A stretch of DNA of 64,000 nucleotides from a virus (IMGVR_UViG_3300007513_001104); one strand, 5' to 3'; positions 7,578-53,245 are shown, counted from the stretch's first letter. Notes: a model not told the origin generated them from the sequence alone. Numbers and translations are program-made.

Positions 7578-7586
7578 TTAATTTTC

Positions 7587-8160: not shown

Positions 8161-8161
8161 T

Positions 8162-9754
8162 TTATGCTCCTCCATTAGGTCCTACGGGGTTTCCCTCGCC
8201 TGGAACCTCATCTTCTATATTACCAGCTCCGTTAGGGGCTGCTTGATCAACTGCTGCCAGTGGACTCCATTGATATTGTCTTTGATATTGAGGTTCACTC
8301 AATAATTCAGTTTCAATTTCTTCAATTTCATCATCTGTTAGCATTAAAACGTTCTTTTGTATGTAACGCTTACTAAAAAATGTTCCGATATATGCTGCCA
8401 ATCCGTTTAATACTTCTACTCTACTTCTCAAAATCTCTTGTTCTTTAGACTCTGTATAGTAAGCATCTGTAGAAAACTCAAAATCTATATCGTCTTTAAT
8501 AAGGTGCCAATCCTCTTCGGTTAGAACACCTTTTAGTAAACATTGCGTCTTTAAAAGATCGCTTAACATAACTGAGAACTTCCTTCTTAACTTGATGATG
8601 AATTTTGTAAACTTCATTTCATCTCTGTTAATCTCAGCTGCTCTCCCAAAGTTCATACCAGCTTGTTGTTCCAAACGTGAGATAGGAATGTTCAACGATT
8701 GATATAGTTTACGTTGAAAATATTCTACGTCTTCTATTTGCCCCAGGTTTTGGCCTGCTGGCAATGTATCAATCTGTGTTCCTGTCCCGCCTTCTCTTCT
8801 GGGTAACCAGAAGTCTTCCAACATTGACATAAACTTCTTGTCATCACGGATCTCGCCTGTATTAGCATCGTAAACTAACTTATTACGATAACGATCCATA
8901 ATGTCTTTTAGATATTGTTCTGCCTTCATCTTCGGCAAGTTACCAACATCTACATAAAATATTCGTCTTTCAGGAGCCCTTGTAATTCTATAAATTACTA
9001 CCGCGTTCTCCATCATACGAAGTTGGTTTGCTGGCCTTATGGCCTTGTGTAAATACGACAAAGGTATTTGTTTGTCGCTATCTACCAAACCGCTAGGTGC
9101 ATATGTAATAGCATCCTTTGTTATTTTCAACCCTTGTTGATTCTCAGGTGCTACATAAGCTCCAGGTTTTTGAGTTACGCCCTTATCATTATATATAAAG
9201 AACTCATTAACCTCTTTAACAAACATGACGCCAGTAGGGTTCTTTTCCTTCTTGACTTCACGTACTTTCCTAATTTTCCTGGGATCAATATATCTAATAT
9301 CTTTTATCCCTTGTTTAGGTTGTTCAAGATCTATTACCTTATGGAAATAAATCCTTCCATCAACATACCATCTTCGGAAATAATCCTGGGCTCTATCCTT
9401 AAAGTCCAGGATATTTTTAATTTCCTCGAATTCATTTGCTATACTTTTCCTAACACTGGCTGAAAGTCTTACTTCGTCCAGGTTAATTTCAACGGGTGAC
9501 TCGTTCTCCAATTGTGCAACAGACTCGTTGATTATATCTTCAACTGCTGTATCCACGTCTGCCATTAAAGCAATGTCGCGATACCGCTTAATCAATTCCG
9601 CTTCTGTTTGGGCTATGCCTTCAACGTCCATGTAGGTACCGTAGTACCCACCTGCTCGAATCGACTCTATTGCACCGTCATCGGATGGCGCCACAAAAGA
9701 TTTTTCGCTCTGTGGCGTCTGTTTCCGTTTTATTTCAAACCCAAATAAATCCAT
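8162..9754 (-). CDS. gp20: portal protein
   Basis: LFGF.I, FRRWYVDGR, SYLHKAI...NQLRM.E.A.VIYR..RAPERRIFY.DVGNLP..KAEQY, EDFWLPRREGG. Confidence 0.97.
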   Translation of the reverse strand: MDLFGFEIKRKQTPQSEKSFVAPSDDGAIESIRAGGYYGTYMDVEGIAQTEAELIKRYRDIALMADVDTAVEDIINESVAQLENESPVEINLDEVRLSASVRKSIANEFEEIKNILDFKDRAQDYFRRWYVDGRIYFHKVIDLEQPKQGIKDIRYIDPRKIRKVREVKKEKNPTGVMFVKEVNEFFIYNDKGVTQKPGAYVAPENQQGLKITKDAITYAPSGLVDSDKQIPLSYLHKAIRPANQLRMMENAVVIYRITRAPERRIFYVDVGNLPKMKAEQYLKDIMDRYRNKLVYDANTGEIRDDKKFMSMLEDFWLPRREGGTGTQIDTLPAGQNLGQIEDVEYFQRKLYQSLNIPISRLEQQAGMNFGRAAEINRDEMKFTKFIIKLRRKFSVMLSDLLKTQCLLKGVLTEEDWHLIKDDIDFEFSTDAYYTESKEQEILRSRVEVLNGLAAYIGTFFSKRYIQKNVLMLTDDEIEEIETELLSEPQYQRQYQWSPLAAVDQAAPNGAGNIEDEVPGEGNPVGPNGGA

Positions 9755-9775
9755 ATTCTATACCTATCCCTTAGG

Positions 9776-10306
9776 TTAGGTTACTGTGTACCATTGATAT
9801 TGGAATGTTACTGTAAATTCCTCAATGATATCGTTTTGTGCATATTGTAGTGCTATTTCCGACATATTAATTGGAAAGGCGTCATGTAACTTGTACTGAC
9901 CTCCTGGGAGGTTCTGAGAGTTACGGTCTAAATGATTCACATGTAACAATGTCTGATACTTAGAATGTTCAAGCTCGCCCTGGTTGGCATTTCCGCCTGA
10001 TTCGTTGCCTTTCGTATTCATCAATTCCATCCAAGCTTCAAATGGTTTTCTGAGACTAAATTCATTGTTGTTAGCAATAGTGATGGTCCAAGGATCAAAA
10101 ATCCTTTCGCCAGCAAATTTAACTTCTCTTCCACGATATTGAATTATCGCTGGATTTACCGTTGACGCTGGTAATGCAGCACCTGTAACTAACAGGCTAT
10201 ATTTTCCTTCTGCAACAATACCTGTTGGGAAATTAAGTACGACTTCAAACTGGTTAGGTCTGGCACCGCCTTCTTTTAGCAAGCTTTTAAAATTATCTAT
10301 ATCCAC
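9776..10306 (-). CDS. gp19: tail tube protein
   Basis: GGARPN.F.V, YRGR.VK.AGER.F.PW..T, FP..(S)EI.L.Y, IEEF.VTFQY. Confidence 0.93.
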   Translation of the reverse strand: MDIDNFKSLLKEGGARPNQFEVVLNFPTGIVAEGKYSLLVTGAALPASTVNPAIIQYRGREVKFAGERIFDPWTITIANNNEFSLRKPFEAWMELMNTKGNESGGNANQGELEHSKYQTLLHVNHLDRNSQNLPGGQYKLHDAFPINMSEIALQYAQNDIIEEFTVTFQYQWYTVT

Positions 10307-21799: not shown

Positions 21800-22138
21800 C
21801 TATGCTGCCTTTGTTACCTGTGGGGTTACTGTTACGAGGCCTTCTAATACTCTAAGAGTTTCCACAGGATCTGTTCCTGTGATCTCTACATCATAAACAT
21901 ACCGGCCTGCTTTGATTGCCGTTGTTTGTGCTGCTGTCAATGAGATTGTTACTTCCCCTGTAGCGTCTACTTTTGCCGTGGTAAAGTCTGTTTTTGTCGT
22001 CCCCTCGTATGATTTTCTCATTTGTGATGCTATTGTATAATTCGCTAAATTCTTTGCTGAATTATCATCATTCGTGAGATTAATCGTCAGACTAAACGTC
22101 GTACCTTGGTCAATAGTTATATTTTGTACAGTGGCCAT
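21800..22138 (-). CDS. beta-sandwich virion adaptor protein (BppU/LtfC-like)
   Basis: NI.IDQG.TF, SQMRKSY, I.LTA.QT..I.AGRYVYDVEI, RV.EG..TVTP.VT. Confidence 0.7.
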   Translation of the reverse strand: MATVQNITIDQGTTFSLTINLTNDDNSAKNLANYTIASQMRKSYEGTTKTDFTTAKVDATGEVTISLTAAQTTAIKAGRYVYDVEITGTDPVETLRVLEGLVTVTPQVTKAA

Positions 22139-22170: not shown

Positions 22171-22182
22171 TATTTATAAATA
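22171..22182. promoter_or_regulatory. palindromic bidirectional late promoter TATTTATAAATA
   Basis: Reads TATAAATA on both strands, between the fibre/neck operon (-) and the glycosyltransferase operon (+). Confidence 0.8.
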
Positions 22183-22205
22183 ATAGTGACTCTAATGAGA
22201 ATATT

Positions 22206-22871
22206 ATGAAAACTATTTTGACATTAAAATATGGCGACAAATATACTGCAAATGCCGTCAATTCAATATATGAACATACTGAAGGAAAGTATAATTATGT
22301 ATGCGTAACCGATGATCCAAAGGACTTGGACCCTAATATACAAGTTATTTATATGGACGACGAACCCGATCCAGGGTGTATGGAAAAATTAAACTTATTT
22401 AAACATAATAACCTTGGAACCATACTGTATTTAGACTTAGACGTTAGAATTCAGAAGCCAATTGACCATTTGTTTGATTATTATCAAGGAAATCCCTTAA
22501 TAATATGGACCTGGTGGAAAGATAAAGGATATAAACAAATGAATATCCATGATTTTCCATACAGATCTGACTTTCCACTAAGTAATTTCAACTCAAGCGT
22601 AATGCTTTGGGAAGATCTTACACATATTTACGAATATTATAATGAGAAAAAAGATGAATATATAGTAAAGTATCCTAATGGAGATGATACGTTTTTATAT
22701 CATGAAGGGTTTACATTTGAACACTTACCAAAGCATGAAGTGTATTCATATCTATTTGCAGGAAGAAAATATAGACCTGAATACTCAATATGTATATTAA
22801 ATGGGCTAACACACTGGCCGGAGATTGAAAAAGAATATGATGAACTTTGTTTGCATCAAGTGGGGCACTAA
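22206..22871 (+). CDS. GT-A fold glycosyltransferase (paralog 1)
   Basis: LKYG.KY...VN, CVTDD, YLDLD (DxD), FNSSVM.W, GDD. Start moved to ATG 22206. Confidence 0.75.
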   Translation: MKTILTLKYGDKYTANAVNSIYEHTEGKYNYVCVTDDPKDLDPNIQVIYMDDEPDPGCMEKLNLFKHNNLGTILYLDLDVRIQKPIDHLFDYYQGNPLIIWTWWKDKGYKQMNIHDFPYRSDFPLSNFNSSVMLWEDLTHIYEYYNEKKDEYIVKYPNGDDTFLYHEGFTFEHLPKHEVYSYLFAGRKYRPEYSICILNGLTHWPEIEKEYDELCLHQVGH

Positions 22872-23604
22872 ATACTCACCTAAATATGTAAATAACCTGT
22901 ACCATATGGTGCAGAAAAACTACCATAAAGATTTTACCTTTACATGTTTTACTGATGAGCCTAAAGGTTTGGACTGTTCCACGGAAAAAATACCTGATAT
23001 AGAACCACTACATCCTAAGTATTGGTTTGGAAAAGAGAATTATTGTTGGGACAGATCTAAGTTTCTTGTATTTAACTCTCACGAATGGCTTGGATATGTA
23101 GGGAAATGGACCTACTTTGACCTTGACGTAATAATACAAAACGACATAACCGACTTAGACGAACTAGCCTTAAAACCTAGAATTGTACATAGCACTTGGC
23201 AAGACCCTAGACATAAACACGATAGAAAATTTATAGAAGTTCGTGGTACATACTTCAATTCAAGTATGATGTGTTGGAACATGGATCAATGTCAACATAT
23301 ATTCATGGACGCAATACAAGAAGAACAACAAATTTTTAGAACGTTCTTTAAAGGGACAGATAACTATCACTATTGGAGACAAAGAGACTTCTGGACTAAC
23401 ATACCTTATGAGTGGACATACTCATATAACAGAGGAATGCGCTATCCAGACGATTTAGAACGACATAAATATAGAGAAGATTGTAAACTTTGTATCTTTA
23501 ATACGGATTTAACTCCGCATCCGATAGCAAAGGGACAGATTAAAATTGATGAATTACAAGATGAGAAACTTTTGAGACTTTGGAATGGTAACACTAATAG
23601 CTAA
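22837..23604 (+). CDS. GT-A fold glycosyltransferase (paralog 2)
   Basis: CIKWG.KY...YVN.L, CFTD, YFDLD, FNSSMM.W, GTDNY. Confidence 0.78.
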   Translation: MMNFVCIKWGTKYSPKYVNNLYHMVQKNYHKDFTFTCFTDEPKGLDCSTEKIPDIEPLHPKYWFGKENYCWDRSKFLVFNSHEWLGYVGKWTYFDLDVIIQNDITDLDELALKPRIVHSTWQDPRHKHDRKFIEVRGTYFNSSMMCWNMDQCQHIFMDAIQEEQQIFRTFFKGTDNYHYWRQRDFWTNIPYEWTYSYNRGMRYPDDLERHKYREDCKLCIFNTDLTPHPIAKGQIKIDELQDEKLLRLWNGNTNS

Positions 23605-25123
23605 TCAGCTAGACAGCAATTATAGCCAACGGCAAATTAATGCCTTTTATACTCAGGCGAAAAAACTGATTGAAGATCCTTTTGACTTCGTTGTATTCAC
23701 TAATGAAGATGAAATGAAGTTATTAGAAACTACAAAAAAGGTAGAAGGTTATATACAAGGTATAACTTTCCATGTTCCTAAATACGGAAAAGACTGGTTA
23801 GAGATAGATATAATGCAACATACAGAACCAGGCGATGTGTCTTTATTTGTAACTCCTAATGTCATACTTAATAATCCTACAGAATTTTTTAACTATAAGT
23901 GCAAAGGTATAGATAAATTAATATTAGAAGACGGAAATTTTTGTTATGTATGTAATCGTAATGAGAGTGCAGAGAATATATTAACACTATGGGATGAACA
24001 TGAAGATGATATGACCTTTAAACATCATTCTTTTGGTGAGGCCTTTTATAGTAATGAAGTTCCTGAGTTCTCTTTTATACAAAACACAAACCATAACTAT
24101 CCAGAAAAGACTGATGGAGATATAGTGGTGTTACCTTATTGGTATGAAGACTTTACAAAAGAGCAATTAGAATTAAGTTATAATAGAGAAACAGATCTTT
24201 ATCCTTATTTGCCAGAAAGAGTTGAAATGGAATTGTCTAATGGTAAAGATCACTTAACAAGAAAACTAATAGAAAATAATTTTGACTTTGACTTTATAAC
24301 AAGATCTAAATTTAAAAGGATTACTCTTGTAGGTGAACCCATTACATGTCCAGAAATAATTGAGATATGTCAATACTTAATGGCTGACTGGGGCATAGCA
24401 ATTGATATGGAAACAGAGGCAAAAGAACATGATCTTATATGGTGGAATAATTTAGGAGTATTGTTTTATAATAATTTTGTTTCAGAGTGGAATGAAAAAT
24501 ATAATGAAAGCGCTAAAAATATTGGTAATATAACTATCCACATAAACACATCTAATCCAGACGAAGAAGTTATGAAAAGAGCTGATGCATTAATAGAACA
24601 AGGTTGTAGAGTCTTTTGGCACTATACTCAAACACATTTATCACAAGTAGAAGATTTAGCAAAAGCTAAAAAACTATCTAAGAAACATAAATTTACTGGC
24701 TTCGTATATAAAAATGAAATGAAAGAAGAAGTCAAACCAATAAAGAAAAAGATTAAAAAGGAAATGCCTGATTATAGTCTTATAGATTTTCACACTCTAA
24801 AAACCGTACAACAAGACGACATATATAAAGAAAGGAAGATAGTTTTTAGTCCTCATGTTGAATGCGAAGGTAAACTTAAAAATCAATTTTACTTAAACGC
24901 TGAAGGAAATGTTTTTCCGTGCAAACATGTAGCATCAAATGTTACAACAGCACACAAATCTCCCGAACATAAAACAGAACTATTATATGATTGGGACAAG
25001 AATAATATTAGTAATAATAATTTGGAGACTATATTTACTAATGATTTTTATAAAGGGTACTTTAATAATTTATTAAAATTGAACCCGCAAGTAATACATA
25101 ATGAACAGGAAGGAATATGTTAA
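23585..25123 (+). CDS. degenerate GT + degenerate radical-SAM/SPASM-like fusion
   Basis: N-term aligns with the GT paralogs but lacks DxD. C-term has GEP, WW..LG and C...FYLNAEGNVFPC, but no CxxxCxxC. Confidence 0.55.
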   Translation: MVTLIANQLDSNYSQRQINAFYTQAKKLIEDPFDFVVFTNEDEMKLLETTKKVEGYIQGITFHVPKYGKDWLEIDIMQHTEPGDVSLFVTPNVILNNPTEFFNYKCKGIDKLILEDGNFCYVCNRNESAENILTLWDEHEDDMTFKHHSFGEAFYSNEVPEFSFIQNTNHNYPEKTDGDIVVLPYWYEDFTKEQLELSYNRETDLYPYLPERVEMELSNGKDHLTRKLIENNFDFDFITRSKFKRITLVGEPITCPEIIEICQYLMADWGIAIDMETEAKEHDLIWWNNLGVLFYNNFVSEWNEKYNESAKNIGNITIHINTSNPDEEVMKRADALIEQGCRVFWHYTQTHLSQVEDLAKAKKLSKKHKFTGFVYKNEMKEEVKPIKKKIKKEMPDYSLIDFHTLKTVQQDDIYKERKIVFSPHVECEGKLKNQFYLNAEGNVFPCKHVASNVTTAHKSPEHKTELLYDWDKNNISNNNLETIFTNDFYKGYFNNLLKLNPQVIHNEQEGIC

Positions 25124-25338
25124 AAGTAAAAAATGGAATTATAATAGAAGGAAATTTTGATAAACAGGAAGGTAAATTGCCTAAGTTAGTAAGAGAGGCA
25201 AGTTTTTCTACTATCATAGTTCATTCAAATTTAAATGAGTTCGAAGAAAAATGTAAAGCTATTGTTGATCTACTCGCAGGAGAAGGAATACAATACGCTA
25301 AAAAATATGTTATAGCAAGGGCAGCTTATGAGAGTTAA
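25117..25338 (+). CDS. hypothetical protein (73 aa)
   Basis: AGGA RBS; overlaps both neighbours in the operon. Confidence 0.65.
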   Translation: MLKVKNGIIIEGNFDKQEGKLPKLVREASFSTIIVHSNLNEFEEKCKAIVDLLAGEGIQYAKKYVIARAAYES

Positions 25339-26140
25339 TATTGTATGTTCAAAATGGGGTAGCAAATATGGTCCTCATTTTGTAAATCGATTAAAAAATA
25401 TGGCAAGGAGACATACAGATCCTAAACACGACTTCCACTTCTACTGTTATACAGATGATGCTGAAGGTTTTGATGATGATATAAAAGTAATTCCTTTTCC
25501 GGATATACCTAATATACATCCTAAGTATTGGTTTGAAAAAGACGACTTTAAATATGGCATGGCAAGATGTTGGGATAGACCTAAAACAATGGTATTCAAT
25601 ACACATAATTTTGCTGAGGATAAACCAACAGGCAGATTTGTATTCTTTGATTTAGATGTTATCATACAAAATGATATAGAACCTTTACTCACTTGGAATT
25701 TTGAACGCCCAACCAAGTTGAGATCATGGTGGCAAGACCCTAGGCCAATGAAAACAAGACGATTTAAATTATCACATGGTGCATATACGAATGGCAGTTG
25801 TCAAATATGGAGCGACGATCAAGCAGAATGTATATGGCAAGATGTATTAGAACATCAGGATAAAATTTGGTTTACATTTACAGACGGAACAGACAATTAT
25901 CACAGTTGGAGATGGGGTAATTGGGGCAAAAAATTATGGGATCATTTTCCAGCAGAGTATGCTTACTCGTATAACCGAGGACGCAGTTGGGACGATGATG
26001 ATTTAGAAACAAAAATCTACAGGGAAACACCTATCCTCTGTGTATTTAATGTAGACCTACTACCACAACCTACACCTGAAAGAGGAAAAGTTAAACAGAA
26101 TGAGTTAGTTGATCCAAACTTATTAAAGCATTGGCAATAA
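25328..26140 (+). CDS. GT-A fold glycosyltransferase (paralog 3)
   Basis: CSKWG.KY...VNRL..M, CYTDD, FFDLD, NGS, GTDNY; closest to paralog 2. Confidence 0.78.
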   Translation: MRVNIVCSKWGSKYGPHFVNRLKNMARRHTDPKHDFHFYCYTDDAEGFDDDIKVIPFPDIPNIHPKYWFEKDDFKYGMARCWDRPKTMVFNTHNFAEDKPTGRFVFFDLDVIIQNDIEPLLTWNFERPTKLRSWWQDPRPMKTRRFKLSHGAYTNGSCQIWSDDQAECIWQDVLEHQDKIWFTFTDGTDNYHSWRWGNWGKKLWDHFPAEYAYSYNRGRSWDDDDLETKIYRETPILCVFNVDLLPQPTPERGKVKQNELVDPNLLKHWQ

Positions 26141-26144
26141 ATAT

Positions 26145-26834
26145 ATGCACATAGAACATTTAAATATCTATACTGTTAAATGGGGAACGAAATATTCTTC
26201 ACACCACGTCAATAAAATATTGGAATCGTGTAAAGAACATCTAACTTATGATTTTACATTTCATTGTTTAACAGAAAGTCCTAAAGGACTTGAAAAAGAA
26301 GTCAATGTTATACCACTACCAAAAGATAACAAAATGGAAAAGTGGTGGAATAAGATGTACTTGTTTGATGATAATGTTGTCAGGAAGAAAGGAGACAATT
26401 TATTCTTTGATTTGGATATTATTATCCAAAAGAATATAGATGACATTGTAAACTTTGATCCTGAGGATTGTTTATGTTTTGGCCAAACACATTGGCACGA
26501 TTTAGAAACAATGAAGAAAGAAACAGAACATGTTCCACACAGATTTACAGAACTTAATTCTAGTATATTAAGATGGAACGATAACTTAGATAAAGAGAAC
26601 ATAACTCTTTATTTTAAAACACACTTAGATAAGATCTTATGGTACTATCGGGGAATAGATAATTTCTTTAGCCACAAAGGTGTGGCAAGAATTAAATACT
26701 TTCCTATAGGATGGTTTTACAGTTACAATCATGGGTACATATTTCCTCATGATATAGAAAAACAAGTCTACAGACAAATACCATATGTCTGTTTATTTGA
26801 TTCAATGGGAAGAAAAGAAGATGTTAAATTTTAA
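26145..26834 (+). CDS. GT-A fold glycosyltransferase (paralog 4)
   Basis: VKWG.KY...VN, CLTE, WWNK..LF, FFDLD, NSSI..W, GID. Confidence 0.78.
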   Translation: MHIEHLNIYTVKWGTKYSSHHVNKILESCKEHLTYDFTFHCLTESPKGLEKEVNVIPLPKDNKMEKWWNKMYLFDDNVVRKKGDNLFFDLDIIIQKNIDDIVNFDPEDCLCFGQTHWHDLETMKKETEHVPHRFTELNSSILRWNDNLDKENITLYFKTHLDKILWYYRGIDNFFSHKGVARIKYFPIGWFYSYNHGYIFPHDIEKQVYRQIPYVCLFDSMGRKEDVKF

Positions 26835-27489
26835 TTTTTTAAACAGCATGCAATATTGGGGAGAAGGTTTGGCCAAAGTCGAGCATGAAATGAAACACAA
26901 GCACGACGACTTTAGGCAAGCTCTTAATCCAAACACTATGGAGGGAGCCATTTGGTTAGTTGAAGAGCTACAAAAAAGTTTAGATAACTATTTAAAAGAA
27001 GAGCAATTTAATATTCTTGTATTAAATAGCTGGTTAGGGATACCTTTAGTTCCTTTACTATGTGAGAACTTGTCCGTGGGAGAATTACACCTAGTTGACA
27101 TAGATAACGAAGCTTTAGAGCTCTCTAAGGTGTTTAATAAGCATTATATTACAGAAGAATACATCAAAATAAATCACTGGAACTTAGACATTCCATTCGC
27201 TTTTGATGAGTTAAATCAATTGAAGGTAGATATAGTAATTACAATGGGTGCTGAACAGATGTATCCACTAAATGATCTTAGGACAGCAAACAAACATGCA
27301 ATATTTGCTTGCCAATCTTCTAATGTTATAGAAGAGATGTATGGAATTAATTGTGTGGATAGTGAAAAGAAATTGATTGAAAATGTAGGACTAAAAGATA
27401 CGACCTACACGGGTAAAGTCAAACAATTTTATTATGATTGGAATGGAAAGGTTTATTACGATAGGTTTATGGCTATCGGTACTAAATGA
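26821..27489 (+). CDS. class I SAM-methyltransferase-fold protein (degenerate motif I)
   Basis: W..E.L, ILVLNSWLG (Gly-poor motif I), LVDID, DIVI, GINCV, RFMAIG. Confidence 0.5.
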   Translation: MLNFNFLNSMQYWGEGLAKVEHEMKHKHDDFRQALNPNTMEGAIWLVEELQKSLDNYLKEEQFNILVLNSWLGIPLVPLLCENLSVGELHLVDIDNEALELSKVFNKHYITEEYIKINHWNLDIPFAFDELNQLKVDIVITMGAEQMYPLNDLRTANKHAIFACQSSNVIEEMYGINCVDSEKKLIENVGLKDTTYTGKVKQFYYDWNGKVYYDRFMAIGTK

Positions 27490-27492
27490 AAA

Positions 27493-28140
27493 TTAACCTC
27501 TGGTAGGATTACCTGGAGGTAATTCTCCATCATTCATTTCCTTATACTTATCTAAATAAACTCCTTCCAAAAGTTTGCTATTAGATAGTGAGATAACTAC
27601 TTCCTCTCCTCCTACGATTTGAACAACATTTTGCATTGGAGCCTTAATAGCCCAAAGTGATACAGTTTCCTTTTCTATATACTCTCTTAAAAATTCGTTG
27701 GAGCGCTCTTCAGTGCAAGGCCCAGAGGATGGGGTTTCTTGAAAATAAGCTCCTATTCGATTGGTAGTATCGAAAATGTTTGGTCTCGTCTTGGTAGGTG
27801 CTATTCCTTTGCAAGCCAGTAGTTTTTTAGGACCATAGTTATATATTTTACCGCCCCAATCTTTTCGTCGAATTTTACCCCCTGCCCAAGTCAAAAGATT
27901 TTTTTCTGTTTGGCCAATTTTATAAATCTTATTGTTTTCAAATATAAAGGCATATACAAAACTTTTATGAGTTGTGCCTGAAAAATCTTCAGTATTTATT
28001 TCAGGGAAAAGACTTGCATTTCCAGATCCAACAAAGTCTTCGTTAACACCATCAGGATACATAGCACCATTTTTCCAAATAAAATTTGGCACTACTAATT
28101 CAAATTCTTTTTTTAATATTTCTTTATAAAACTTACTCAT
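27493..28140 (-). CDS. putative GIY-YIG-family nuclease
   Basis: FVYAF...IYKIGQT two-strand motif, later R and LE..Y/PPGN; free-standing. Confidence 0.5.
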   Translation of the reverse strand: MSKFYKEILKKEFELVVPNFIWKNGAMYPDGVNEDFVGSGNASLFPEINTEDFSGTTHKSFVYAFIFENNKIYKIGQTEKNLLTWAGGKIRRKDWGGKIYNYGPKKLLACKGIAPTKTRPNIFDTTNRIGAYFQETPSSGPCTEERSNEFLREYIEKETVSLWAIKAPMQNVVQIVGGEEVVISLSNSKLLEGVYLDKYKEMNDGELPPGNPTRG

Positions 28141-28566
28141 TTAAAAGTCTCCTTCTGCTACTTGCAATGTTTTTAAACCTAATGTTCTCCAGGCTCTGAC
28201 AGTTTGATTCCTGTCATCTAAAACAAACCTAACATCGTAGTTGGGTTCGATGTCTCTCTGATAAATCTCTGTCTTAACTTCTGAATCTTTTCTGTAATCT
28301 CCGTTCGCTCTCATGAACAAAGCATCAAATTCAAAATCGTTATTGGCCATGAACTGTATTGTTCCTTCTCTTGCTTCTTCTGTTCTAGCAGAAACTACAA
28401 TAATATAATGATCATCCTTATATATCTGAGCAAGGTCTCCAATGATTGGATCGTATTCATCTTCAATTACTCTAGTCATATCGTAAGGATCTCTAGGATC
28501 GTCACCTACTCTATGTGCAATTGTTCCGTCTACATCAACAATGATTGCTTTTCTTTTACCTGACAT
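28141..28566 (-). CDS. HAD 3'-phosphatase (PseT phosphatase domain, stand-alone)
   Basis: DVDGT, VSAR, LFMR..GDYRKD..VK, VLDDR.Q.V..WR.LGL..LQVA.GDF; no kinase P-loop. Confidence 0.88.
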   Translation of the reverse strand: MSGKRKAIIVDVDGTIAHRVGDDPRDPYDMTRVIEDEYDPIIGDLAQIYKDDHYIIVVSARTEEAREGTIQFMANNDFEFDALFMRANGDYRKDSEVKTEIYQRDIEPNYDVRFVLDDRNQTVRAWRTLGLKTLQVAEGDF

Positions 28567-28879
28567 GGTACCTACCTTCGTCTTTAATATATTCAAGATT
28601 TAATTTATCTGCCTCAGCATGTGTTATCCAACCTTTGCCTTTGACATTTTTTAAATCCTCTACTGAAACTTTGTATCTATTGCCAAATGTATCTTCACAA
28701 TAAATTACCTTTGTTAAAGGGCCAACAGCATAGTTTGATTCTTTGTAACTAACGTGGCTCACTTCTTTTATTAAAGGGTTTATTGGAGTTTGGAAGAAGT
28801 GGTGATCAAGCATTGGCTTCTTAATCAAACCTTTTAAAAGTTGTGCTATCTCCCTTATTATGTAATCGTTATACTTCAT
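28556..28879 (-). CDS. hypothetical protein
   Basis: ORF with ATGA coupling to the upstream gene. Confidence 0.65.
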   Translation of the reverse strand: MKYNDYIIREIAQLLKGLIKKPMLDHHFFQTPINPLIKEVSHVSYKESNYAVGPLTKVIYCEDTFGNRYKVSVEDLKNVKGKGWITHAEADKLNLEYIKDEGRYHVR

Positions 28880-29337
28880 CCTGTACAGCTCCCATCTTCA
28901 AACCAATCATTGAGATCAATTCTTGCTTTCCTAGCATCTCTCTTATCAAAAGATCTTTGGACTGCATCTTTTTTTGTCCTTGTTCCTGACGTGTCACCTT
29001 TAACTGGAAGACCATACTCTTTCCAAAAGTCTGAATCGTCTTTTGCTCTAGCAGCTATTGTTCTTTCTGCTGTTTCCATATCAATAGCATCGATTTGAAC
29101 AAAGTCTAAAATCATGTCTGCAAATGGGATGGCTCCGTTTGATTTCCAAACTACAATGCCATCAAGTAAGGTTGCGCCTTTAAAATTCTCTTCTACAGAA
29201 GTATGGAATTTTGGTGCGTCTTTTTCAAGTAAGACATTACCTGTAAATGTTTTGTAGATATCATCATGAGCTGCCATTCCAAAACGTTCTTTTTTAACTG
29301 TTTGGCCTGCTATTTCTACTGTATTTTCTAATATCAT
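28876..29337 (-). CDS. hypothetical (probable early) protein
   Basis: GAGGA RBS; first gene after a sigma70 promoter. Confidence 0.75.
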   Translation of the reverse strand: MILENTVEIAGQTVKKERFGMAAHDDIYKTFTGNVLLEKDAPKFHTSVEENFKGATLLDGIVVWKSNGAIPFADMILDFVQIDAIDMETAERTIAARAKDDSDFWKEYGLPVKGDTSGTRTKKDAVQRSFDKRDARKARIDLNDWFEDGSCTG

Positions 29338-29375
29338 AATTATTAAATCCTCTACTTTTTATTAATTATGCTACT

Positions 29376-29404
29376 ATTATGCACTCTCGTGAACCAAGAG
29401 TCAA
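29376..29404 (-). promoter_or_regulatory. sigma70-type early promoter with upstream A-tracts
   Basis: TTGACT-17 bp-CATAAT preceded by AAAAAA tracts (UP-like). Confidence 0.75.
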
Positions 29405-29450
29405 GCATTTTTTGGGTTATTTTTGAAATCTTTTTCGTAAAATCAATAAC

Positions 29451-30104
29451 TTAGGAGAGATGATCAGCGGATTCACCAGAAATATCCGCAACCATGGACT
29501 GCCAGAGCCCTAAATGGGGTATTACATAACCCAAAGTGAGTCTGGGTTCGTCAGTTCCTGCACAATGATAGTAGACTTTCTCAGGCTCTCTACCTCTGCC
29601 AAAATATCCTACTTTACAGGACCAACCACCAGGGTCTTGTAAGTGAATAACTTCGTGTGTTTTAGGATCTCTATATTTAAAAAACCCTCTGCCATTCTCT
29701 GTATAAGATAATAATATATTATAACCATGGGCATTCCAATTATTGTGCCAACCCATGAAACCTTTTTTAGGATAAAATACATGTACTGCTTCGTTTCTAG
29801 CTCCCAAAAAATTACACAGGTCTATAGAAAATGCTCGATATTTGTCTTGAAAATTTTGTGGGTGATCTCCTGCTTGTAAATCATAACTGTAAGAAATTTC
29901 TGGATACCCTTCGTGGGCACCATCTTTAGTTACAATCTCATCTAAATATTCTCGAGAAGTAGCCCAGCCCAATTGATACAAAGGATCGTTTTTTGGGTTC
30001 TTTATTGCCAATTCTTCTAAGGGAGATAAGTCTTGTTGGAAAAACCAATTTGAATATGGTTCCAACATTTCTAATAATTCATCTGATATCTTAGTAAAAA
30101 TCAT
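29451..30104 (-). CDS. 2OG-Fe(II) oxygenase-like (DSBH) protein
   Basis: YP..GFMGWHNN, distal YHC, and R.TLG; HxN in place of HxD. Confidence 0.55.
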   Translation of the reverse strand: MIFTKISDELLEMLEPYSNWFFQQDLSPLEELAIKNPKNDPLYQLGWATSREYLDEIVTKDGAHEGYPEISYSYDLQAGDHPQNFQDKYRAFSIDLCNFLGARNEAVHVFYPKKGFMGWHNNWNAHGYNILLSYTENGRGFFKYRDPKTHEVIHLQDPGGWSCKVGYFGRGREPEKVYYHCAGTDEPRLTLGYVIPHLGLWQSMVADISGESADHLS

Positions 30105-31297
30105 TTATATTTTAAATATATCTCATGATCAGGAATAGTGTAATGATACAAAACTATATCTTCGCCTTCTAATTCTTTTGGGTCGTGTCCATTTATAAAA
30201 TTCCATTTGACATGTAAGTTTTCATCCCATCTTACACCATGATCACTATATGTTAATAAATTCCACATTGTAAAAGTATCCCATCTCCTAGCATCTCGAG
30301 GATAAGATCCTATGTCATTATTTTTATCTTGTTGCCATAAGAAATGGCCATACCAAGAGTCCATTAGTTGAAGTGTTTGAGGATTATTTCTGTATATAAA
30401 CATTCCACAATGTGCTGTCATTTCTTCTGTGTTAGACAATTTAGTTAATTTTGCGTTGTATGGTCTTATTTTTGTAAACAGTAAATCTAAATCATCTGGT
30501 AGTTGATCAAATACATTTTCTATATCTTCATGCTGACAGATCATATCACAATCTAAATAACATGTCTTTCCTCTATATGGTGTACAAGATAAAGCCCAAA
30601 GTTTAGCCCTAATATGATTAGGTACTCCCCAAGACTCTATCCAATCTGCATGTTCATAGTGTTCTTCTTTTATCCATTCTTTATGTGATACGAAAATTGT
30701 TATATGTGCCTCAGGCCAAAAGAGTTTAATAGACTCTGCAAGATCTATACCTGCTTGATAAAATCTTTCATGGCATGATGCAACAATAACAAATCCATTA
30801 TCAGGAAAATTGTCTGTACCAACAATCTCCATAGCTGGACGAAGCCATAAATTATTAAGTTCTTCTACCACGTAGACCTTTTTAACATCTGGTCTGCCTT
30901 CAAACTCTAATGGTAAAGAAAATAAGTGATTATTATAAAGGAATAAATCACCAACTTTTAATTCTTTTGCGTAATTTAAGTTAGAATCTGTCATGTTTCT
31001 GTCTTCATACAACAAAACATCTTCTACAATTAACTCTGCATTTTCTAAATCAAACTCTGTGCCTTCGTCTTGATCTTTTAATACTTTGTAAACTTTATTT
31101 TCTATCCAAACATGTTGTCCAGCTAGATGTTCCAAGTTGTCGTACCAGATATCTACATGGACTCCTTCAAATTCTTGGACTGGTGTACCAGGTGTGGTGT
31201 GTAAAGAGTCTAGTCTTGCTTTAAACTCTTTATCTTTAAATATTTGTTCTTGGCCGAACTGACCAAATACTGCTTTATCTTTCGTCATCGTCTTCAT
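30101..31297 (-). CDS. GT-A glycosyltransferase with N-terminal duplicated module
   Basis: C-term G...VAS...Y..G..LAES, RAKL.AL..TPY, YLDCD, HCGMF.Y, WD; N-term 88-aa module shared with the upstream gene. Confidence 0.75.
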   Translation of the reverse strand: MKTMTKDKAVFGQFGQEQIFKDKEFKARLDSLHTTPGTPVQEFEGVHVDIWYDNLEHLAGQHVWIENKVYKVLKDQDEGTEFDLENAELIVEDVLLYEDRNMTDSNLNYAKELKVGDLFLYNNHLFSLPLEFEGRPDVKKVYVVEELNNLWLRPAMEIVGTDNFPDNGFVIVASCHERFYQAGIDLAESIKLFWPEAHITIFVSHKEWIKEEHYEHADWIESWGVPNHIRAKLWALSCTPYRGKTCYLDCDMICQHEDIENVFDQLPDDLDLLFTKIRPYNAKLTKLSNTEEMTAHCGMFIYRNNPQTLQLMDSWYGHFLWQQDKNNDIGSYPRDARRWDTFTMWNLLTYSDHGVRWDENLHVKWNFINGHDPKELEGEDIVLYHYTIPDHEIYLKYK

Positions 31298-31562
31298 GTA
31301 AAGACAATATCTGATTATCGTAAAGGAATAAGTCGCCGACTTTTAATTCTTTTGCATAATTTAAATTAGCATCTGTCATATTTTTATCTCTATATAAAAG
31401 TACATTTTCAACGATAACTTCCACATTTGACTTTTTAAATTTTGTATTTTTCTTTTGGTCTTTTTTAACTTTATAAACCGTGTCATCTTTCCAAACATGT
31501 TGTCCAGCTAGATGTTCTAAGTCGTCATACCATATGTCAACATGTACACCTTCAAACTCTTG
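30914..31562 (-). repeat. 264-bp domain duplication across two adjacent genes (30914-31177 and 31299-31562)
   Basis: QEFEGVHVDIWYD.LEHLAGQHVW...VYKV ... NMTD.NLNYAKELKVGDLFLY.N...SL present in both. Confidence 0.92.
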
Positions 31563-32171
31563 GTATAACGATCTTAATTTTTGTTTTGCTCTTAAGCCTT
31601 CAAACAGTTCTTCAATACTTTTATCTAATAACATCTCATCCAAATCAGTAGGTTTATAAATTGGTATTTGTCCTGTGCGTACTAATTCTTCTTTTAATAA
31701 TATAGATGCTAGTGTTTGAACTTCTAATGGAGACTTAGCTTTACGAATTAACTTTTTCAGTTCGTTGTTCGTAGAGTTTTTAATTAATGGAATTTCATAA
31801 GCTTCAAGTTTAGCTCCGAATAACATTTCTTGTTTGCGCCTAACTGCTTCGGACTCTTTACGTTGTAACCTTCTTTTTATATGATCGTCTCTTCTTTGTA
31901 ACCCTTCTTCTGTGTTTTTATCTATTCCCTCTTCACCAAACTCTTCTAAAACTGCTTTATAGTCTGGATTGTTTCCATCATTATCCATGATAGATGCGGT
32001 TGCTTTTTTACCGTTAGGATATACTAAGGTAACGATTAGATGTTTGGCCTCTTTATGAGACCAATAAGGATCTTCAAATTTGTATTGAGGTTCTTTTTTA
32101 GGTTCTTTATCTGGTGGTAAAACTTTTAATTTAGACTTGACGTTGCGTTTTACCTTTTTAGGCTTTGCCAT
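31275..32171 (-). CDS. hypothetical protein (possible fibre-assembly chaperone) with C-terminal duplicated module
   Basis: Follows the YTG-repeat gene, has its own late promoter; chaperone role inferred from position only. Confidence 0.6.
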   Translation of the reverse strand: MAKPKKVKRNVKSKLKVLPPDKEPKKEPQYKFEDPYWSHKEAKHLIVTLVYPNGKKATASIMDNDGNNPDYKAVLEEFGEEGIDKNTEEGLQRRDDHIKRRLQRKESEAVRRKQEMLFGAKLEAYEIPLIKNSTNNELKKLIRKAKSPLEVQTLASILLKEELVRTGQIPIYKPTDLDEMLLDKSIEELFEGLRAKQKLRSLYQEFEGVHVDIWYDDLEHLAGQHVWKDDTVYKVKKDQKKNTKFKKSNVEVIVENVLLYRDKNMTDANLNYAKELKVGDLFLYDNQILSLHEDDDER

Positions 32172-32195
32172 AATATCTCCATAATATATAAAACT

Positions 32196-32203
32196 TATTT
32201 ATA
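32196..32203 (-). promoter_or_regulatory. late promoter
   Basis: TATAAATA upstream of the 32171 gene. Confidence 0.75.
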
Positions 32204-33433
32204 CTAAGCTGTTCTCAACCATAATTTATAGGTGGCCACGTTTTCTTCTGTTGTTGTAATTGTGTCACCTGCATAATATCCTGTGTATGTTCCTGAATAT
32301 GTGCCTGAGTATGCTGAGGTTCCTGTATAGTATCCTGTATAACTTCCGGAATAAGCTCCTGAGTATGTACCTGAGTAGTTTTTAGCTCCTGTATAAAACC
32401 CTGTATAAGAACCTGTATAATATCCTGTGTAAGTTGTACCAGCGTAACCTGAGTAGTCTGCTGCGTAGTTACCTGTATATGCTCCGGAGTAAGCTCCTGA
32501 GTATGCTGAGGTTCCTGTGTATGTTCCTGTATAGTTACCTGTATAACTTCCGGAGTAAGCTCCTGAGTACGCTTTAGCTCCTGTATAGTTGCCTGTATAA
32601 CTTCCGGTGTAATTTCCTGTGTAGCCTGTTGATGCTACTGCATGTCTTGTATCTGTAAATGTTTCACCTTGTGCAGCCCAAGTTCCTGTTTCACTTGGTG
32701 CGCCTGATTGTATTTTGTATGTTCCAACGCCTTGTGTACTTCCAAAGTTTTCTACAATTCTGTTTCTAAAGTTAGGAACAATTTGTTCCATCTCGGATGC
32801 TGACATTTCTTTAATGCTTGTGCCATCAACCTTACAAGGTTTGTAATTGTCAACTGCTGCTGTTGTTGCTGTTGTTTTTTGCCAAATATATTTAGTAGCT
32901 TCTGTTTCATCTACTTGAGTATCTGTTATTGTGTATCTGGATGTCCAAGTTCCACCAGCTGGTGCTGATGCTGCTAGAGTATAGTGACCTGTTACATAAT
33001 TGCCTTGAGCAACCATGTCTGCTATAACTTTATCTATTAAATCTGAATCTAATTCTGAATCTGTAAACTCATGTATTCCTACTGTTCCTGAAGATTCATA
33101 ACCAACCGGTCTGTTAGTAATACTTTCTGACGCTGCTCCTGTAACCTGTTTACCTGTGTAAGTAACTGTGGTTAATGCTCCTGTTGCTGGGTGAGTTCCT
33201 ATTGCTTCTTGTCTTTTTGTATCTGTTATAGTTCCAATAGTTGTCCCTGCGCCTGATGCGTTTGTTGTAATGTTTAATTCAGCTGTACCTGTTCCATCAG
33301 TATTGTCTGAGAAATCTTTTGTTATTATTGCCGAATAATATTGTTCAATTTCAGTATCCGTCATTTCTTGTAACCCTTGGAAGTTACTTGAACTAACTGG
33401 ATATGCTGAAGCTTTAATTTTTAGTGGTCTCAT
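32204..33433 (-). CDS. virion fibre-like protein with Y[TS]G-x repeat array
   Basis: Three-repeat scaffold (RP/KP...EM/F.D.E...TITDT) plus 27 Y[TSA]G units. Confidence 0.75.
   Translation of the reverse strand: MRPLKIKASAYPVSSSNFQGLQEMTDTEIEQYYSAIITKDFSDNTDGTGTAELNITTNASGAGTTIGTITDTKRQEAIGTHPATGALTTVTYTGKQVTGAASESITNRPVGYESSGTVGIHEFTDSELDSDLIDKVIADMVAQGNYVTGHYTLAASAPAGGTWTSRYTITDTQVDETEATKYIWQKTTATTAAVDNYKPCKVDGTSIKEMSASEMEQIVPNFRNRIVENFGSTQGVGTYKIQSGAPSETGTWAAQGETFTDTRHAVASTGYTGNYTGSYTGNYTGAKAYSGAYSGSYTGNYTGTYTGTSAYSGAYSGAYTGNYAADYSGYAGTTYTGYYTGSYTGFYTGAKNYSGTYSGAYSGSYTGYYTGTSAYSGTYSGTYTGYYAGDTITTTEENVATYKLWLRTA
32270..32630 (-). repeat. 12-bp-period coding repeat (Y-[T/S]-G-x)
   Basis: YTGNYTGSYTGNYTG-AKA-YSGA... 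visible in both protein and DNA. Confidence 0.92.
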
Positions 33434-34193: not shown

Positions 34194-37100
34194 TTAAACC
34201 TGTAATGCTATGGCTCGTAAGTCCTTAAACTTAGGAACCTTAGTGGTATCTGTTGAAAGTGGCACAATCTTAACTGCAAAAGTCTTATATCCTGTGTGTG
34301 TAATGTTTCCTATCGTTGATGTGGCTGCTGCTGAAGAGCCATCTCCTGTTATAGTAACCGTGGGAGCGGATGTATATCCTCTTCCAGGGTTAGTAACTTT
34401 AATTCCACTGATTGTTCCACTACTAATCTCTGCTTTTGCTGTTGCTCCAAAACCACCACCGCCAGATATTGTTACGGTGGCTGTTGAATATCCACTTCCT
34501 GCTGTACCAACTGAAATTGCTGTAACAGAACTTAGTACATATTCAAAAATACTTGTAGATGCGTTAGTTCCTGCTGCGTTTGAACCACGTGCAGGTATTG
34601 AATAACTATATTCTGCAAATCCTTCTGTCTGTTCTGCTGGTGAAGTATTAGCTGTTAGTTCTGTCCAATTTAAATCTTCTTGGAAGTTTCCAGGATCTGC
34701 TGCGTTTTGGAATTTACCATAAACTTTAATGCTTCCTGTGTTTGGAATTGCTGCTTCTAAATAAACCTGTAAATCTTCTGCGTCCATACCTTCTTCTAAT
34801 ACAACACGTCTAGAAATATATCTAGATGATGCTGAGCCTCCTACTCTACCATCTTCTCCTGTAGCTGTATTGTTGACTTCGTTTTTAATACATAACAAGT
34901 CTGCTTGATCTATCTCAATAATTGGAGAAACGTTATCATTAAATGTAGAGAATGTTATCTTAGCTCTTGCTGTCTGTGTAGTCGAATAGTTGACTACTTC
35001 ATTTGTTCTACTGTAAATTGTTTTCTCTTTTGCTAGTGTATGTGTTGTTCCAAAATCTACGTCTTGGTATGAAGTTGTATTGGCTGACCCTGCTCCTGTA
35101 TCTGTTAATGCTAGTTTGCAAGTAGCTGTTGTTCCTTCTCCTGGTTGTAATATGCCAAAGTTAGGTGCTATATCATTAACTACTTTATCTGTAAACCCAC
35201 TTATTGTTGCATAACCGTCTGCGTTACCAACAACATCTCCTACTGTAAAATGTCCAGATTTAAGAACTGTGTGGGCATAGTTGTATAAGTTATCCCAAAA
35301 GTCTACTCTACCTTTATTAAGTCTTAATGTTGCTGTAGCTGTTGTTGTTCCGGCAGCTATTGTTATTGTTGGTGCAATATTATAACCCGATCCTGGGTTT
35401 GTAACTGTTAATCCTGTTACTGCTCCTCCTGAAATTACTGCTGTTAATGCTAATCCTGTTCCGCCTGTGCCTGTGTTTGTAACTGTAACAGCTGGTGCTG
35501 AGCTATAACCCGATCCACCTGCTGTAATTGTAGGTGTAAATCCAACTAGGTTTTTACCTGGACTGAATTTTTTAGCAGCAAAAGACCAACTTGTATCTGT
35601 AAAGTTTAACCAATCAATGGGTTCAGTTATTAAGTGTCCTGAATATGCTTGATCCTTCTTAAACCTACATCTCCTTATTTTAAACATTATGTCTTTGTTT
35701 TGATGTGGGCTCCATGTTCTATCGTTAGCTGAGCTGAACATCATGCCTGCTGCAGGTTGTTTTGAAATTCTTGTTGTTGTTCCGTATTGGTTTTCACCTA
35801 ATTGTGCTATCCAAATCTCAAATCCTTTGTCGTCGTTCTCTGGTTTTGGAACAAAACAATATTCTGTATTATTTTTTAAGTAAACAGGATCTGGGAAACT
35901 AAATACAGTTGGAGTATATGTTGTAGTTCCACCTGATGTTGATGATAAATTAATTTGTGCTGCTGGTAAATATTTTATTCCATTAGGAATGGTTCTAGGT
36001 CCGGGTACTCCATTAACCACTTCTCTAAGTTCCATTGTAACACCATTGGTTCCTTTTGTTTTAAAGTAAATCTCGACGTCTGAAATAAATACTCCGCCAG
36101 GGACTCCGTGGACTGTAAATGTTTGTGCTAGTGGATCAACCCATGGATTATACCCACCACCTCCATTCATGGCCAAAGAGATATCTAACTCTTCCATAAA
36201 ATCCAATTGGCCATCTGTTACTCCCGTATTCCAAGTAACGCCTACAGGCTCATTTGTGGGTGCTAGACAAGTCATGTCTGGCATAACTTCTACAGGCTCG
36301 AATGCCGGTACTACTGTGATATCCGGGATAGTAGTAATTACAGTTTCTATTACATGAGGAGCTCCTGGTGGGCCTTCTGCTCCTGTTGGGCCTGGTAATC
36401 CTGGCAATCCTGTTGGTCCAGGTGGGCCTGTTGGTCCGGGTGGGCCTGGAGGCATATTAGCAACGTCTTCTATAAGTTGTTCAACAGATGCTAATCCGGC
36501 TGCAACAGCTGCATCTGTCTGGGCTTGCCAGTCTGATAAGTCTACTGCTTCTGCAGGGGTTCCTGGAGAACCAGGTGGGCCTGGTGGGCCAGCGTCGCCT
36601 GTTTGTCCTACCGGTCCAGGCTCTCCTGTGGGTCCTGGTGCTCCTACGACGTTTGTAATTTCGTGTATAATAACAGGTGCTGGAGGAGGGGGCAACGGTG
36701 TGCCTGCTCCTATTGAAATTTCAACACTTGTATCTGTCATCACTCTATCTCCTGAGTGATATGTCGGTGTTACGTTTGCTGTTTTAAGAGCAAGTATTGT
36801 GTCTTGTGTTTTTTGTCTTAATCCTGAAGATTCATAATTAGCAGTTGAAGTTGTTCTTGCTAATGCATCGTTGTTATTTACATCGTCTGTTAATTTAAAT
36901 ACCTTGACACCTGTTTTAAATTGTCCTGAAGGAATTAAAAATTGTCCAAAGCATGTGCCATTTGCATCTGTTGTTATTGTTCCACCCAATGTTCCTGCTG
37001 AGTTTGTAACGTGTGCTGATACATCTTCTCCATCAAAGAATGGATAAACTACTGTGTTTGGTTTTAATCTTATACAATTAAATACAACATTTACTTCTCT

Positions 37101-53201: not shown

Positions 53202-53245
53202 ATAAATACCTATGTTATATTAATGTTACACACTTATTTATATGG
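53198..53245. promoter_or_regulatory. face-to-face late promoter pair (TATAAATA + at 53201-53208; - at 53235-53242)
   Basis: 11-bp inverted repeat CCATATAAATA/TATTTATATGG; each arm combines one promoter with the opposite gene's ATG. Confidence 0.75.

Follow-up and report, generated by a model that had tools for sequence, protein, structure and literature searches.

GT8-rich gene clusters among the fiber genes of marine T4-like myophages have been published before, in the host-recognition cluster of the pelagimyophages (Zaragoza-Solas et al. 2020, PMC7029224). Here we analyze a locus that resembles this cluster, located at positions 22171-33433 of a viral stretch of DNA (IMGVR_UViG_3300007513_001104) whose full 64 kb, which we call the window, cover the structural arm of a T4-like myophage. 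The locus, hereafter the island, encodes five predicted glycosyltransferases (GT1 to GT5) together with putative accessory proteins, and it differs from the pelagimyophage cluster in being the conserved rather than the variable part of its region and in having clear late promoters. The best reading of the island is that its products build or tailor glycans in the cytoplasm, are transcribed together with the virion genes and glycosylate virion proteins, a reading that we advance tentatively and at somewhat less than even confidence.

Virion glycosylation by mycobacteriophage glycosyltransferases (GTs) was reportedly described by Freeman et al. in 2023. In a further account, mycobacteriophage GTs glycosylate structural proteins of their own phage, with glycans measured on the C-termini of capsid and tail-tube proteins (PMC12619734). 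The island differs from that system in host phylum, phage type and GT families. Giant viruses use cytoplasmic GT-A enzymes and 2-oxoglutarate (2OG) oxygenases on their own structural or collagen-like proteins, examples being the PBCV-1 capsid GTs, a viral collagen prolyl hydroxylase and the mimivirus collagen lysyl hydroxylase, and two structures of this kind (5c5t and 6ax7) are among the Foldseek matches of a 217-residue island protein, although these matches are weak (TM about 0.32). Those are eukaryotic viruses, however, and the collagen-like insert found in the window is not co-conserved with the oxygenase-like gene that encodes the 217-residue protein.

Cytoplasmic protein glycosylation outside viruses provides further points of comparison. 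Streptococcal serine-rich-repeat adhesins are modified by GtfA/B and then by GT8 enzymes such as GlyE, in a pathway that extends an O-glycan stepwise in the cytoplasm and that, like the island, combines several soluble GT8-fold paralogues with a neighboring Ser-rich repeat protein. GlyE is the top fold match of GT3 (Z 16.8, root-mean-square deviation (rmsd) 3.4 over 211 residues), but its identity to GT3 is only 11%, and the island has neither a GtfA/B-type GT-B initiator nor an accessory Sec system. Hydroxyproline glycosylation of Skp1 in Dictyostelium and Toxoplasma (PhyA, Gnt1, PgtA and AgtA/Gat1) pairs a PHD-type fold with a glycogenin-like GT8 on a cytoplasmic protein, and both folds are matched in the island (6t8m at Z 9.8 and 6mw5 at Z 15.6). 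Unlike the Skp1 system, the island lacks any GT60 or GT2/GT74 member and its PHD-like protein reads HxN at the HxD site, and one clade of related loci keeps the core GTs without the oxygenase-like gene. Finally, the LgtC/Waa-type GT8 enzymes of lipopolysaccharide (LPS) and lipo-oligosaccharide cores share their fold, DxD motif and size with the island family and, in the case of LgtC, are its best PDB sequence-profile matches (E 0.02-0.05), but these are chromosomal bacterial genes in LPS loci, whereas the family studied here is essentially phage-borne and lies behind late promoters.

Glycosyltransferases and late promoters

The enzymes and promoters at the center of the island are the following:

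22171-22182, both strands: palindromic bidirectional T4-type late promoter, TATTTATAAATA, which reads TATAAATA on each strand
22206-22871, + strand: GT1, predicted 221-residue DxD glycosyltransferase paralogue (PHROG 1962 glycosyltransferase, E 2.7e-10; weak Pfam GT8; family profile E 2e-58)
22825-23604, + strand: GT2, predicted 259-residue DxD paralogue (family profile E 2e-70; Pfam GT8 18.7 bits, below cut-off)
25328-26140, + strand: GT3, predicted 270-residue retaining-type GT-A enzyme of GT8/GT24 fold (AlphaFold2 model, Foldseek, VIA, invariant DxD)
26145-26834, + strand: GT4, predicted 229-residue DxD paralogue (PHROG 1962, E 1.9e-9; family profile E 6e-75)
26821-27489, + strand: methyltransferase-like protein, 222 residues from its likely start, in an open reading frame (ORF) that opens at 26785
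30101-31297, - strand: GT5, predicted 398-residue glycosyltransferase with a duplicated N-terminal module of about 95 residues and a C-terminal DxD domain of about 245 residues
32196-32203, - strand: second late promoter, TATAAATA, 24 nt 5' of the gene for a protein that we call p298

GT1 to GT4 are 26-46% identical in pairwise comparisons, with GT2 and GT3 closest to one another at 46%, and they have in common an N-terminal K-W/Y-G-x-K-Y motif, an invariant D-L-D and an N-S-S motif. Across 61 sequences of the family, the residues equivalent to D108 and D110 of GT3 are invariant, and this DxD aligns with that of LgtC. Predicted structures were obtained with AlphaFold2 for GT3 and for the 217-residue protein. 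The GT3 model (predicted local distance difference test score, pLDDT, of 88) matches retaining GT-A enzymes of families GT6, GT8 and GT24 in Foldseek at E 2e-8, and its VIA neighbors, found at Z 15.2-16.8 (193-233 residues aligned, rmsd 3.1-3.8, model residues 1-270), are GlyE (16.8), LgtC (16.6), WbbM (16.3), Gat1 (6mw5, 15.6), UGGT, LARGE1 and glycogenin. Because these neighbors are tied within 1-2 Z, the fold does not discriminate between a protein and a lipo-oligosaccharide acceptor.

At the level of sequence, assignment to GT8 falls short of the curated Pfam cut-off for Glyco_transf_8 (PF01501, 24.3 bits), with GT1 at 16 bits, GT2 at 18.7 bits and no match for GT3 or GT4. GT8 is nonetheless the sole recurring Pfam match of the family, being found at E <= 0.01 in 11 of 61 members (best 5e-6), and the PDB profile matches, all of them weak, are likewise all to GT8 enzymes (LgtC, glycogenin and Skp1 Gat1) except for the weakest, at E 2. 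GT1 to GT4 thus have a GT8 fold and form a separate sequence family. The original prediction of four paralogous DxD GT-A enzymes is borne out by the invariant D-L-D and by the GT-A fold of the GT3 model, whereas the family assignment that it proposed as a check succeeds for the fold and fails at the Pfam threshold. A profile search of 1.84 billion cluster representatives recovered 4,208 members at E <= 0.001, nearly all of about 230 residues, while a motif scan of limited sensitivity across 185,579 prokaryote genomes yielded 9 loci, mostly on short contigs of metagenome-assembled genomes (MAGs). Judged from these searches, the family appears to be essentially phage-borne. Two cellular assignments, L111 in a Flavobacteriales MAG (GT3 homologue at 89% identity) and L112 in a Bifidobacterium breve MAG (73%), are almost certainly mis-binned phage contigs.

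The catalytic part of GT5 appears to be a distant relative of this paralogue family. Its D249 and D251 are invariant, consistent with the earlier proposal of a fifth GT, searches with its profile reach family members at E-values as low as 1.7e-5, the reverse search with the family profile finds GT5 at E 7e-4, and hhalign gives 67% around the DxD. For both GT5 and the 217-residue protein, profile searches of the PDB returned nothing better than chance-level matches, and neither was assigned a family by Pfam or PHROGs. In most relatives GT5 consists of the domain of about 245 residues alone, and the p298 homologue has about 165 residues. The additional module of about 95 residues (FEGVHVDIWY...GQHVW...VYKV...), which spans 30887-31562 in the window where it ends p298 and starts GT5, represents a tandem duplication across the gene junction and is limited to some sub-clades (L005, L006 and L008, and at the GT5 N-terminus in L010 and L029). 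GT1 to GT5 are predicted to transfer sugars.

Transcription of the island can be predicted from its promoters. The palindrome lies in the 67-nt gap between the gene for an LtfC-like protein and GT1, 32 nt 5' of the former (start 22138, - strand) and 23 nt 5' of the latter (start 22206, + strand), and together with the second promoter it defines two converging units (22171-32203), in agreement with the units originally proposed to start at the palindrome and at 32196; the ORFs are as described there and both promoters are exact. In the window, TATAAATA occurs 19 times where 8.9 +/- 2.7 copies are expected, and 13 of these 19 lie between genes, 3-63 nt 5' of a start on the same strand; the genes preceded in this way include those for the major capsid, scaffold, tube and sheath proteins. 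Because it is sited before these virion genes, the motif acts like the late promoter of this phage. Within the window's clade, 47 of 49 loci have the exact 12-nt palindrome, while the spacer sequence that flanks it drifts. On the p298 side, all but one (L078) of the seven long relatives shown have TATAAATA at the matching position, as do all six scored loci. TATAAATA at -10 and kept among relatives, the mark of a T4-type late unit, is therefore a property of the window's clade, and the + unit of a sister clade is without it. No promoter separates the homologue of a 409-residue structural-type protein from p298 in that sister clade, where the unit runs on from same-strand structural genes. These motifs suggest that the island is expressed late. 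Late-promoter prediction failed for the published pelagimyophages (PMC7029224), unlike which the window's clade appears, by motif, to have a clear late-promoter consensus that is conserved before the island. Elsewhere in the window, at 53201-53242, another divergent pair of TATAAATA boxes is found, each 33 nt from a start (53242 on the + strand, 53201 on the - strand), and here the boxes are separate and form no palindrome.

Phage identity and conservation across relatives

Among the PHROGs found in the window are the major capsid protein, scaffold, portal, sheath, large terminase and baseplate wedge and hub proteins, which agrees with the T4-like phage named in the original prediction. The capsid protein shows 70.9% identity to its counterpart in Methylophilales phage Melnitz and 69.6% to the one in Pelagibacter phage HTVC008M. 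No psbA is present in a 170-kb, 99%-complete relative genome, and this, taken together with the capsid likeness, groups the phage with the marine heterotroph myophages and not with the cyanophages. The window phage is thus an uncultured marine T4-like phage of a group whose hosts are streamlined marine heterotrophs. Searches at nucleotide and protein level through 50,697 GenBank phage records returned none with the whole locus, and only partial and distant matches were found, in Mosig, C48C1 and some jumbo phages.

In two scans of IMG/VR, about 280 candidate stretches matched our search patterns, and 100 distinct loci were returned. These metagenomic contigs were picked by similarity to GT3, so that the conservation of GT3 itself is biased upward, and they belong to few clades and are not independent. 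Across about 100 contigs in three clades, the order of the island and its structural neighbors (the LtfC-like gene, the 409-residue protein, a 171-residue protein and a VrlC-like protein) are kept, and the region is variable elsewhere. On contigs of sufficient length in the window's clade, the order is the LtfC-like gene, then GT1-GT2-512-residue protein-73-residue protein-GT3-GT4-methyltransferase-like gene, then variable cargo, then the 217-residue protein-GT5-p298, and last the genes for the 409-, 171- and 76-residue proteins. The sister clade has the same order directly beside the VrlC gene, with GT3 about 75% identical and the other genes 38-57% identical. A third-clade contig keeps only the 512-residue protein-GT3-GT4-methyltransferase-like gene, a p298 homologue of 165 residues and the 409-residue homologue, with no oxygenase-like gene. 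Median identity is 84-91% for GT3, GT4 and the methyltransferase-like gene (84% for GT4), compared to 64-73% for the flanking structural genes. In the 99%-complete relative, all GT-family genes are located in the island locus.

Accessory, flanking and cargo proteins

The remaining features of the locus and its flanks are as follows:

21800-22138, - strand: LtfC-like beta-sandwich protein, fiber-associated (Pfam LtfC, E 9e-6; PHROG 3304 'L-shaped tail fiber protein assembly', E 6e-23)
23585-25123, + strand: 512-residue protein, predicted from an alignment of 18 homologues to have an N-terminal degenerate GT and a C-terminal Cys/His-rich domain
25117-25338, + strand: 73-residue protein, kept in position and divergent (32-77% identity), with no family match in Pfam or PHROGs
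27493-29337, - strand: variable cargo of four genes, for a 215-residue protein, a 151-residue PNKP-type HAD phosphatase, and 107- and 153-residue proteins
29451-30104, - strand: 217-residue double-stranded beta-helix protein with the motif H120-x-N122...H180...R188
31275-32171, - strand: p298, which starts with a lysine-rich domain of about 165 residues that all three clades share and ends with a copy of the GT5 N-terminal module
32204-33433, - strand: candidate acceptor of structural type, 409 residues, in which the x-Y-(S/T/A)-G unit occurs 28 times

The methyltransferase-like gene is the most conserved of the island, with a median identity of 89-91%. The tentative assignment of its product comes from a language-model feature search, in which the ten best named clusters were all class-I methyltransferases (best 0.96). 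A glycine-rich loop reads LNSWLG and is followed by an acidic LVDID; Pfam, PHROGs and PDB sequence searches gave no match, nor did an hhalign comparison of its profile with two annotated Mosig methyltransferases. A domain of this kind is fused to GT-family domains in both orders (in P0041, P0091 and P0149), which argues for a shared substrate. Its start was first placed at 26785 and is probably the ATG at 26821. The first 50 nt of the ORF (26785-26834) are shared with the end of GT4 and are conserved in relatives, most simply because this stretch also codes for the GT4 C-terminus.

The 512-residue protein, which had been proposed as a pseudo-fusion of a GT and a radical-SAM enzyme, finds support for the first half of that description and none for the second. 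Its N-terminus matches the GT family and has an invariant TPN where the paralogues have DLD. A MAFFT placement of an E-I-D under the DLD was dropped in favor of the G-x3-LFV-TPN-VILNN register, which fits the family strand better and in which TPN is invariant. Its C-terminal domain matches the GT-fusion proteins P0035, P0036, P0038, P0040 and P0044, in all five of which the Cys/His domain sits behind an intact GT domain. This domain has a C-x13-G-x4-C motif and a distal Cys cluster that is down to a single terminal Cys in the window's protein, and Pfam SPASM is found in four related proteins at E 0.003-0.02, in every case below cut-off. CxxxCxxC is absent from the 512-residue protein, from 17 homologues and from the fused relatives P0035, P0038 and P0040, and with SPASM matches only below threshold, a dead radical-SAM enzyme is a guess. 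No PDB match was found in a sequence profile search. In the sister clade, L099 encodes at 7495-10011 (+ strand) an 838-residue protein in which an intact GT2-like domain is joined to the Cys/His domain; the two belong to separate genes in the window.

On the minus strand, p298 has no family match in Pfam or PHROGs and nothing in it marks a chaperone, the label that it had been given. The 217-residue protein, originally called a 2OG-Fe(II)-like oxygenase, keeps that description for its double-stranded beta-helix fold and departs from it at the iron site. Its AlphaFold2 model (pLDDT 93) matches P4H and AlkB enzymes in Foldseek at E 1e-5, and PHD2, the Pseudomonas putida P4H, a Dictyostelium PHD (6t8m) and PiuC in VIA at Z 9-10.1 over 146-160 residues, with the VIA alignment placing it nearer to protein prolyl hydroxylases than to AlkB. 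There is no Pfam match, either for the protein itself or, in precomputed Pfam annotations, for hundreds of homologues. In place of the HxD of the iron triad it has HxN, with the Asn invariant in 36 of 36 aligned homologues, which makes hydroxylase activity doubtful; as modeled, it is an oxygenase by fold and not by canonical triad. In prolyl-hydroxylase-type oxygenases the 2OG C5 carboxylate is bound by a basic residue some 9-10 residues after the second His, and R188 of the 217-residue protein is invariant and located 8 residues after H180. The two His residues are 60 residues apart, a spacing that matches the 61 of PHD2. In phage C48C1 (OQ984149.1, Kyanoviridae), three separate places match the protein, the best at 33% identity, suggesting that the HxN prolyl-hydroxylase-fold protein belongs to a family present in multiple copies in some phages.

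The minus unit had been described as p298, GT5 and the oxygenase-like gene, all three of which belong to it, and it continues past a 113-nt gap into the four genes at 27493-29337. One of these (28141-28596, - strand) encodes a stand-alone PNKP-type HAD phosphatase (Pfam HAD_PNKP, E 2e-42) that corresponds to the C-terminal part of the 'polynucleotide kinase' PHROG and is without the kinase domain; for the 73-, 107-, 153- and 215-residue proteins, Pfam and PHROGs contain no family. The genes at 27493-29337 are present, absent or replaced among relatives and are wholly missing in L078 and in the sister clade, and they are cargo at the convergence point, outside of the glycosylation core.

The flanking proteins are rich in the Ser, Thr and Tyr originally noted for them, at 25-29% Ser+Thr, rising to 38% Ser+Thr+Tyr in the 409-residue protein, and the VrlC-like protein contains two collagen-like runs of 10 G-X-Y triplets each at 36357-36644 (- strand), again as described. 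Homologues of the 409-residue protein adjoin the island in all three clades. Co-occurrence of its repeat tract with the island, as proposed for a check across genomes, breaks down, as the number of Y[STA]G units falls from 21-37 in the window's clade to 6 in L099 of the sister clade and to 1 in L091 of the third clade while the core enzymes stay, and the notion of the tract as an obligatory acceptor is weakened by these short versions. Within the tract of homologues from L005 to L099, Tyr and Gly are fixed and the third position varies freely between Thr, Ser and Ala. The collagen-like runs of the VrlC-like protein vary in length and sequence between relatives (L055, L056 and L065). This insert was considered as a hydroxylase substrate and dropped, since several relatives with the 217-residue gene lack it in the part that has been sequenced.

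Possible acceptors of the island and alternative readings

If the island glycosylates virion proteins, T4-type late promoters would switch on five soluble retaining-type GT-A enzymes (GT1-GT4 and GT5) as fiber and baseplate proteins are made. These enzymes would use host nucleotide sugars to add an oligosaccharide stepwise to Ser/Thr, and possibly Tyr or hydroxylated, side chains of nearby structural proteins. The methyltransferase-like protein would then cap or tailor the sugar, while accessory, targeting or priming roles may fall to the degenerate GT-Cys/His protein, p298 and the prolyl-hydroxylase-like protein. What we infer, above all, is that the acceptor is a virion protein. Support comes from the fixed place of the island in the fiber/baseplate module, from the shared late promoter, and from enzymes that appear soluble and without membrane partners; Pfam scans and the island proteins themselves revealed no transmembrane segment in any enzyme, and no flippase, polymerase, ligase or Gtr-type component in the island. 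The core triad is also conserved beyond the neighboring fibers, the GT family is phage-specific, and the modeled folds have neighbors that act on proteins, namely GlyE, glycogenin, Skp1 Gat1 and UGGT for GT3 and the protein prolyl hydroxylases for the 217-residue protein.

A more specific version of virion glycosylation, in which the island is a fiber-decoration machine whose GT8-fold enzymes, related in fold to glycogenin and GlyE, place a methylated oligosaccharide on Tyr/Ser/Thr of the x-Y-(S/T)-G protein and of the fibers, with the HxN protein and the dead GT recognizing the substrate, we regard as distinctly unlikely.

Several observations weigh against virion proteins as acceptors. Sister clades keep the core enzymes without conserving the Y(S/T)G tract, and the collagen insert is missing from the covered part of L034, L041 and L099, though some such relatives keep the 217-residue gene, in which the invariant HxN is itself a difficulty. 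In the sister clade, GT1 is preceded by a spacer of 20-35 nt with no + strand TATAAATA. GT-family members of the cultured phages Mosig and C48C1 are located outside of the structural module, among replication-side or hyperplastic genes. The protein-acting neighbors of GT3 are tied with the lipo-oligosaccharide and O-antigen enzymes LgtC and WbbM, LPS enzymes of the cytoplasmic face are likewise soluble, and the pelagimyophage clusters have been read as modifying the host O-chain (PMC7029224).

Much of this bears on remodeling of the host envelope, in which the soluble GT8-like enzymes, working at the cytoplasmic face, would extend or alter a host surface glycan such as the LPS core or lipo-oligosaccharide and thereby mask receptors, so that competing phages are excluded or progeny are kept off debris. 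We consider this unlikely on balance, while giving it appreciable weight. GT8 is the classic LPS-core family and LgtC gives the best PDB profile matches, and LgtC and WbbM are on a par with the best fold matches; the pelagimyophage clusters, GT8-rich and located between VrlC and gp14, have been argued to modify the host O-chain; the GT-family genes of Mosig and C48C1 have methyltransferase, sulfotransferase and carbamoyltransferase genes as neighbors outside of a virion module; and the + unit of the sister clade has no late promoter. Set against this, both units of the window's clade have conserved late promoters, and late timing would leave little time for export of a new surface glycan before lysis; membrane, flippase, polymerase and ligase genes are missing from the island, and the GT3-GT4-methyltransferase-like triad is unusually conserved for a function that tracks variable host glycans. 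In addition, because the motif scan met the GT family almost nowhere in cellular genomes, the island is no recently captured host LPS gene set.

An acceptor of some other kind is improbable. It might be a non-structural protein of the host or phage, an oligosaccharide in solution, or a peptide or small molecule, with the Cys/His and methyltransferase-like proteins as tailoring enzymes. In their recurrent fusion to a domain bearing a SPASM-like Cys motif and to one of methyltransferase-like type, the GTs resemble enzyme sets that tailor natural products or peptides, and a conserved 73-residue protein lies in the middle of the operon, but no precursor-peptide signature, radical-SAM cluster motif or transporter is present, and such an acceptor leaves the fixed placement among fiber genes and the shared late promoter unexplained.

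Phage GT systems, including multi-GT sets, reportedly hypermodify DNA (Pyle et al. in 2024). Glycosylation of hydroxymethylated bases of the phage's own DNA, as in T-even phages, is nevertheless highly improbable here, despite such precedents and the AlkB-type nucleic-acid oxygenases among the fold matches of the 217-residue protein, because the 170-kb, 99%-complete relative has no gene of the thymidylate-synthase/dCMP-hydroxymethylase family (PF00303) and the promoters are late-type, whereas the DNA GTs of T4 are pre-replicative and of GT-B fold. The 217-residue protein also aligns closer to protein prolyl hydroxylases than to AlkB.

Whichever acceptor is served, the island contains members of three large, phage-specific families that have no annotation, namely the GT family (4,208 cluster representatives) and those of the methyltransferase-like protein and of the HxN protein with the prolyl-hydroxylase fold. 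They belong to abundant phages, as judged from the roughly 280 IMG/VR candidate stretches and from single protein clusters with hundreds of member sequences. If the host surface is remodeled late in infection, that timing would be unusual and would need an explanation of its own. If virion proteins are decorated, oceanic T4-like phages would join the mycobacteriophages and giant viruses in glycosylating proteins with enzymes of their own, with a bearing on the host range, decay and grazing of marine viruses, and were the fiber-decoration machine true, glycosylated tail fibers would be a widespread factor that determines how phage particles adsorb and survive in the ocean.

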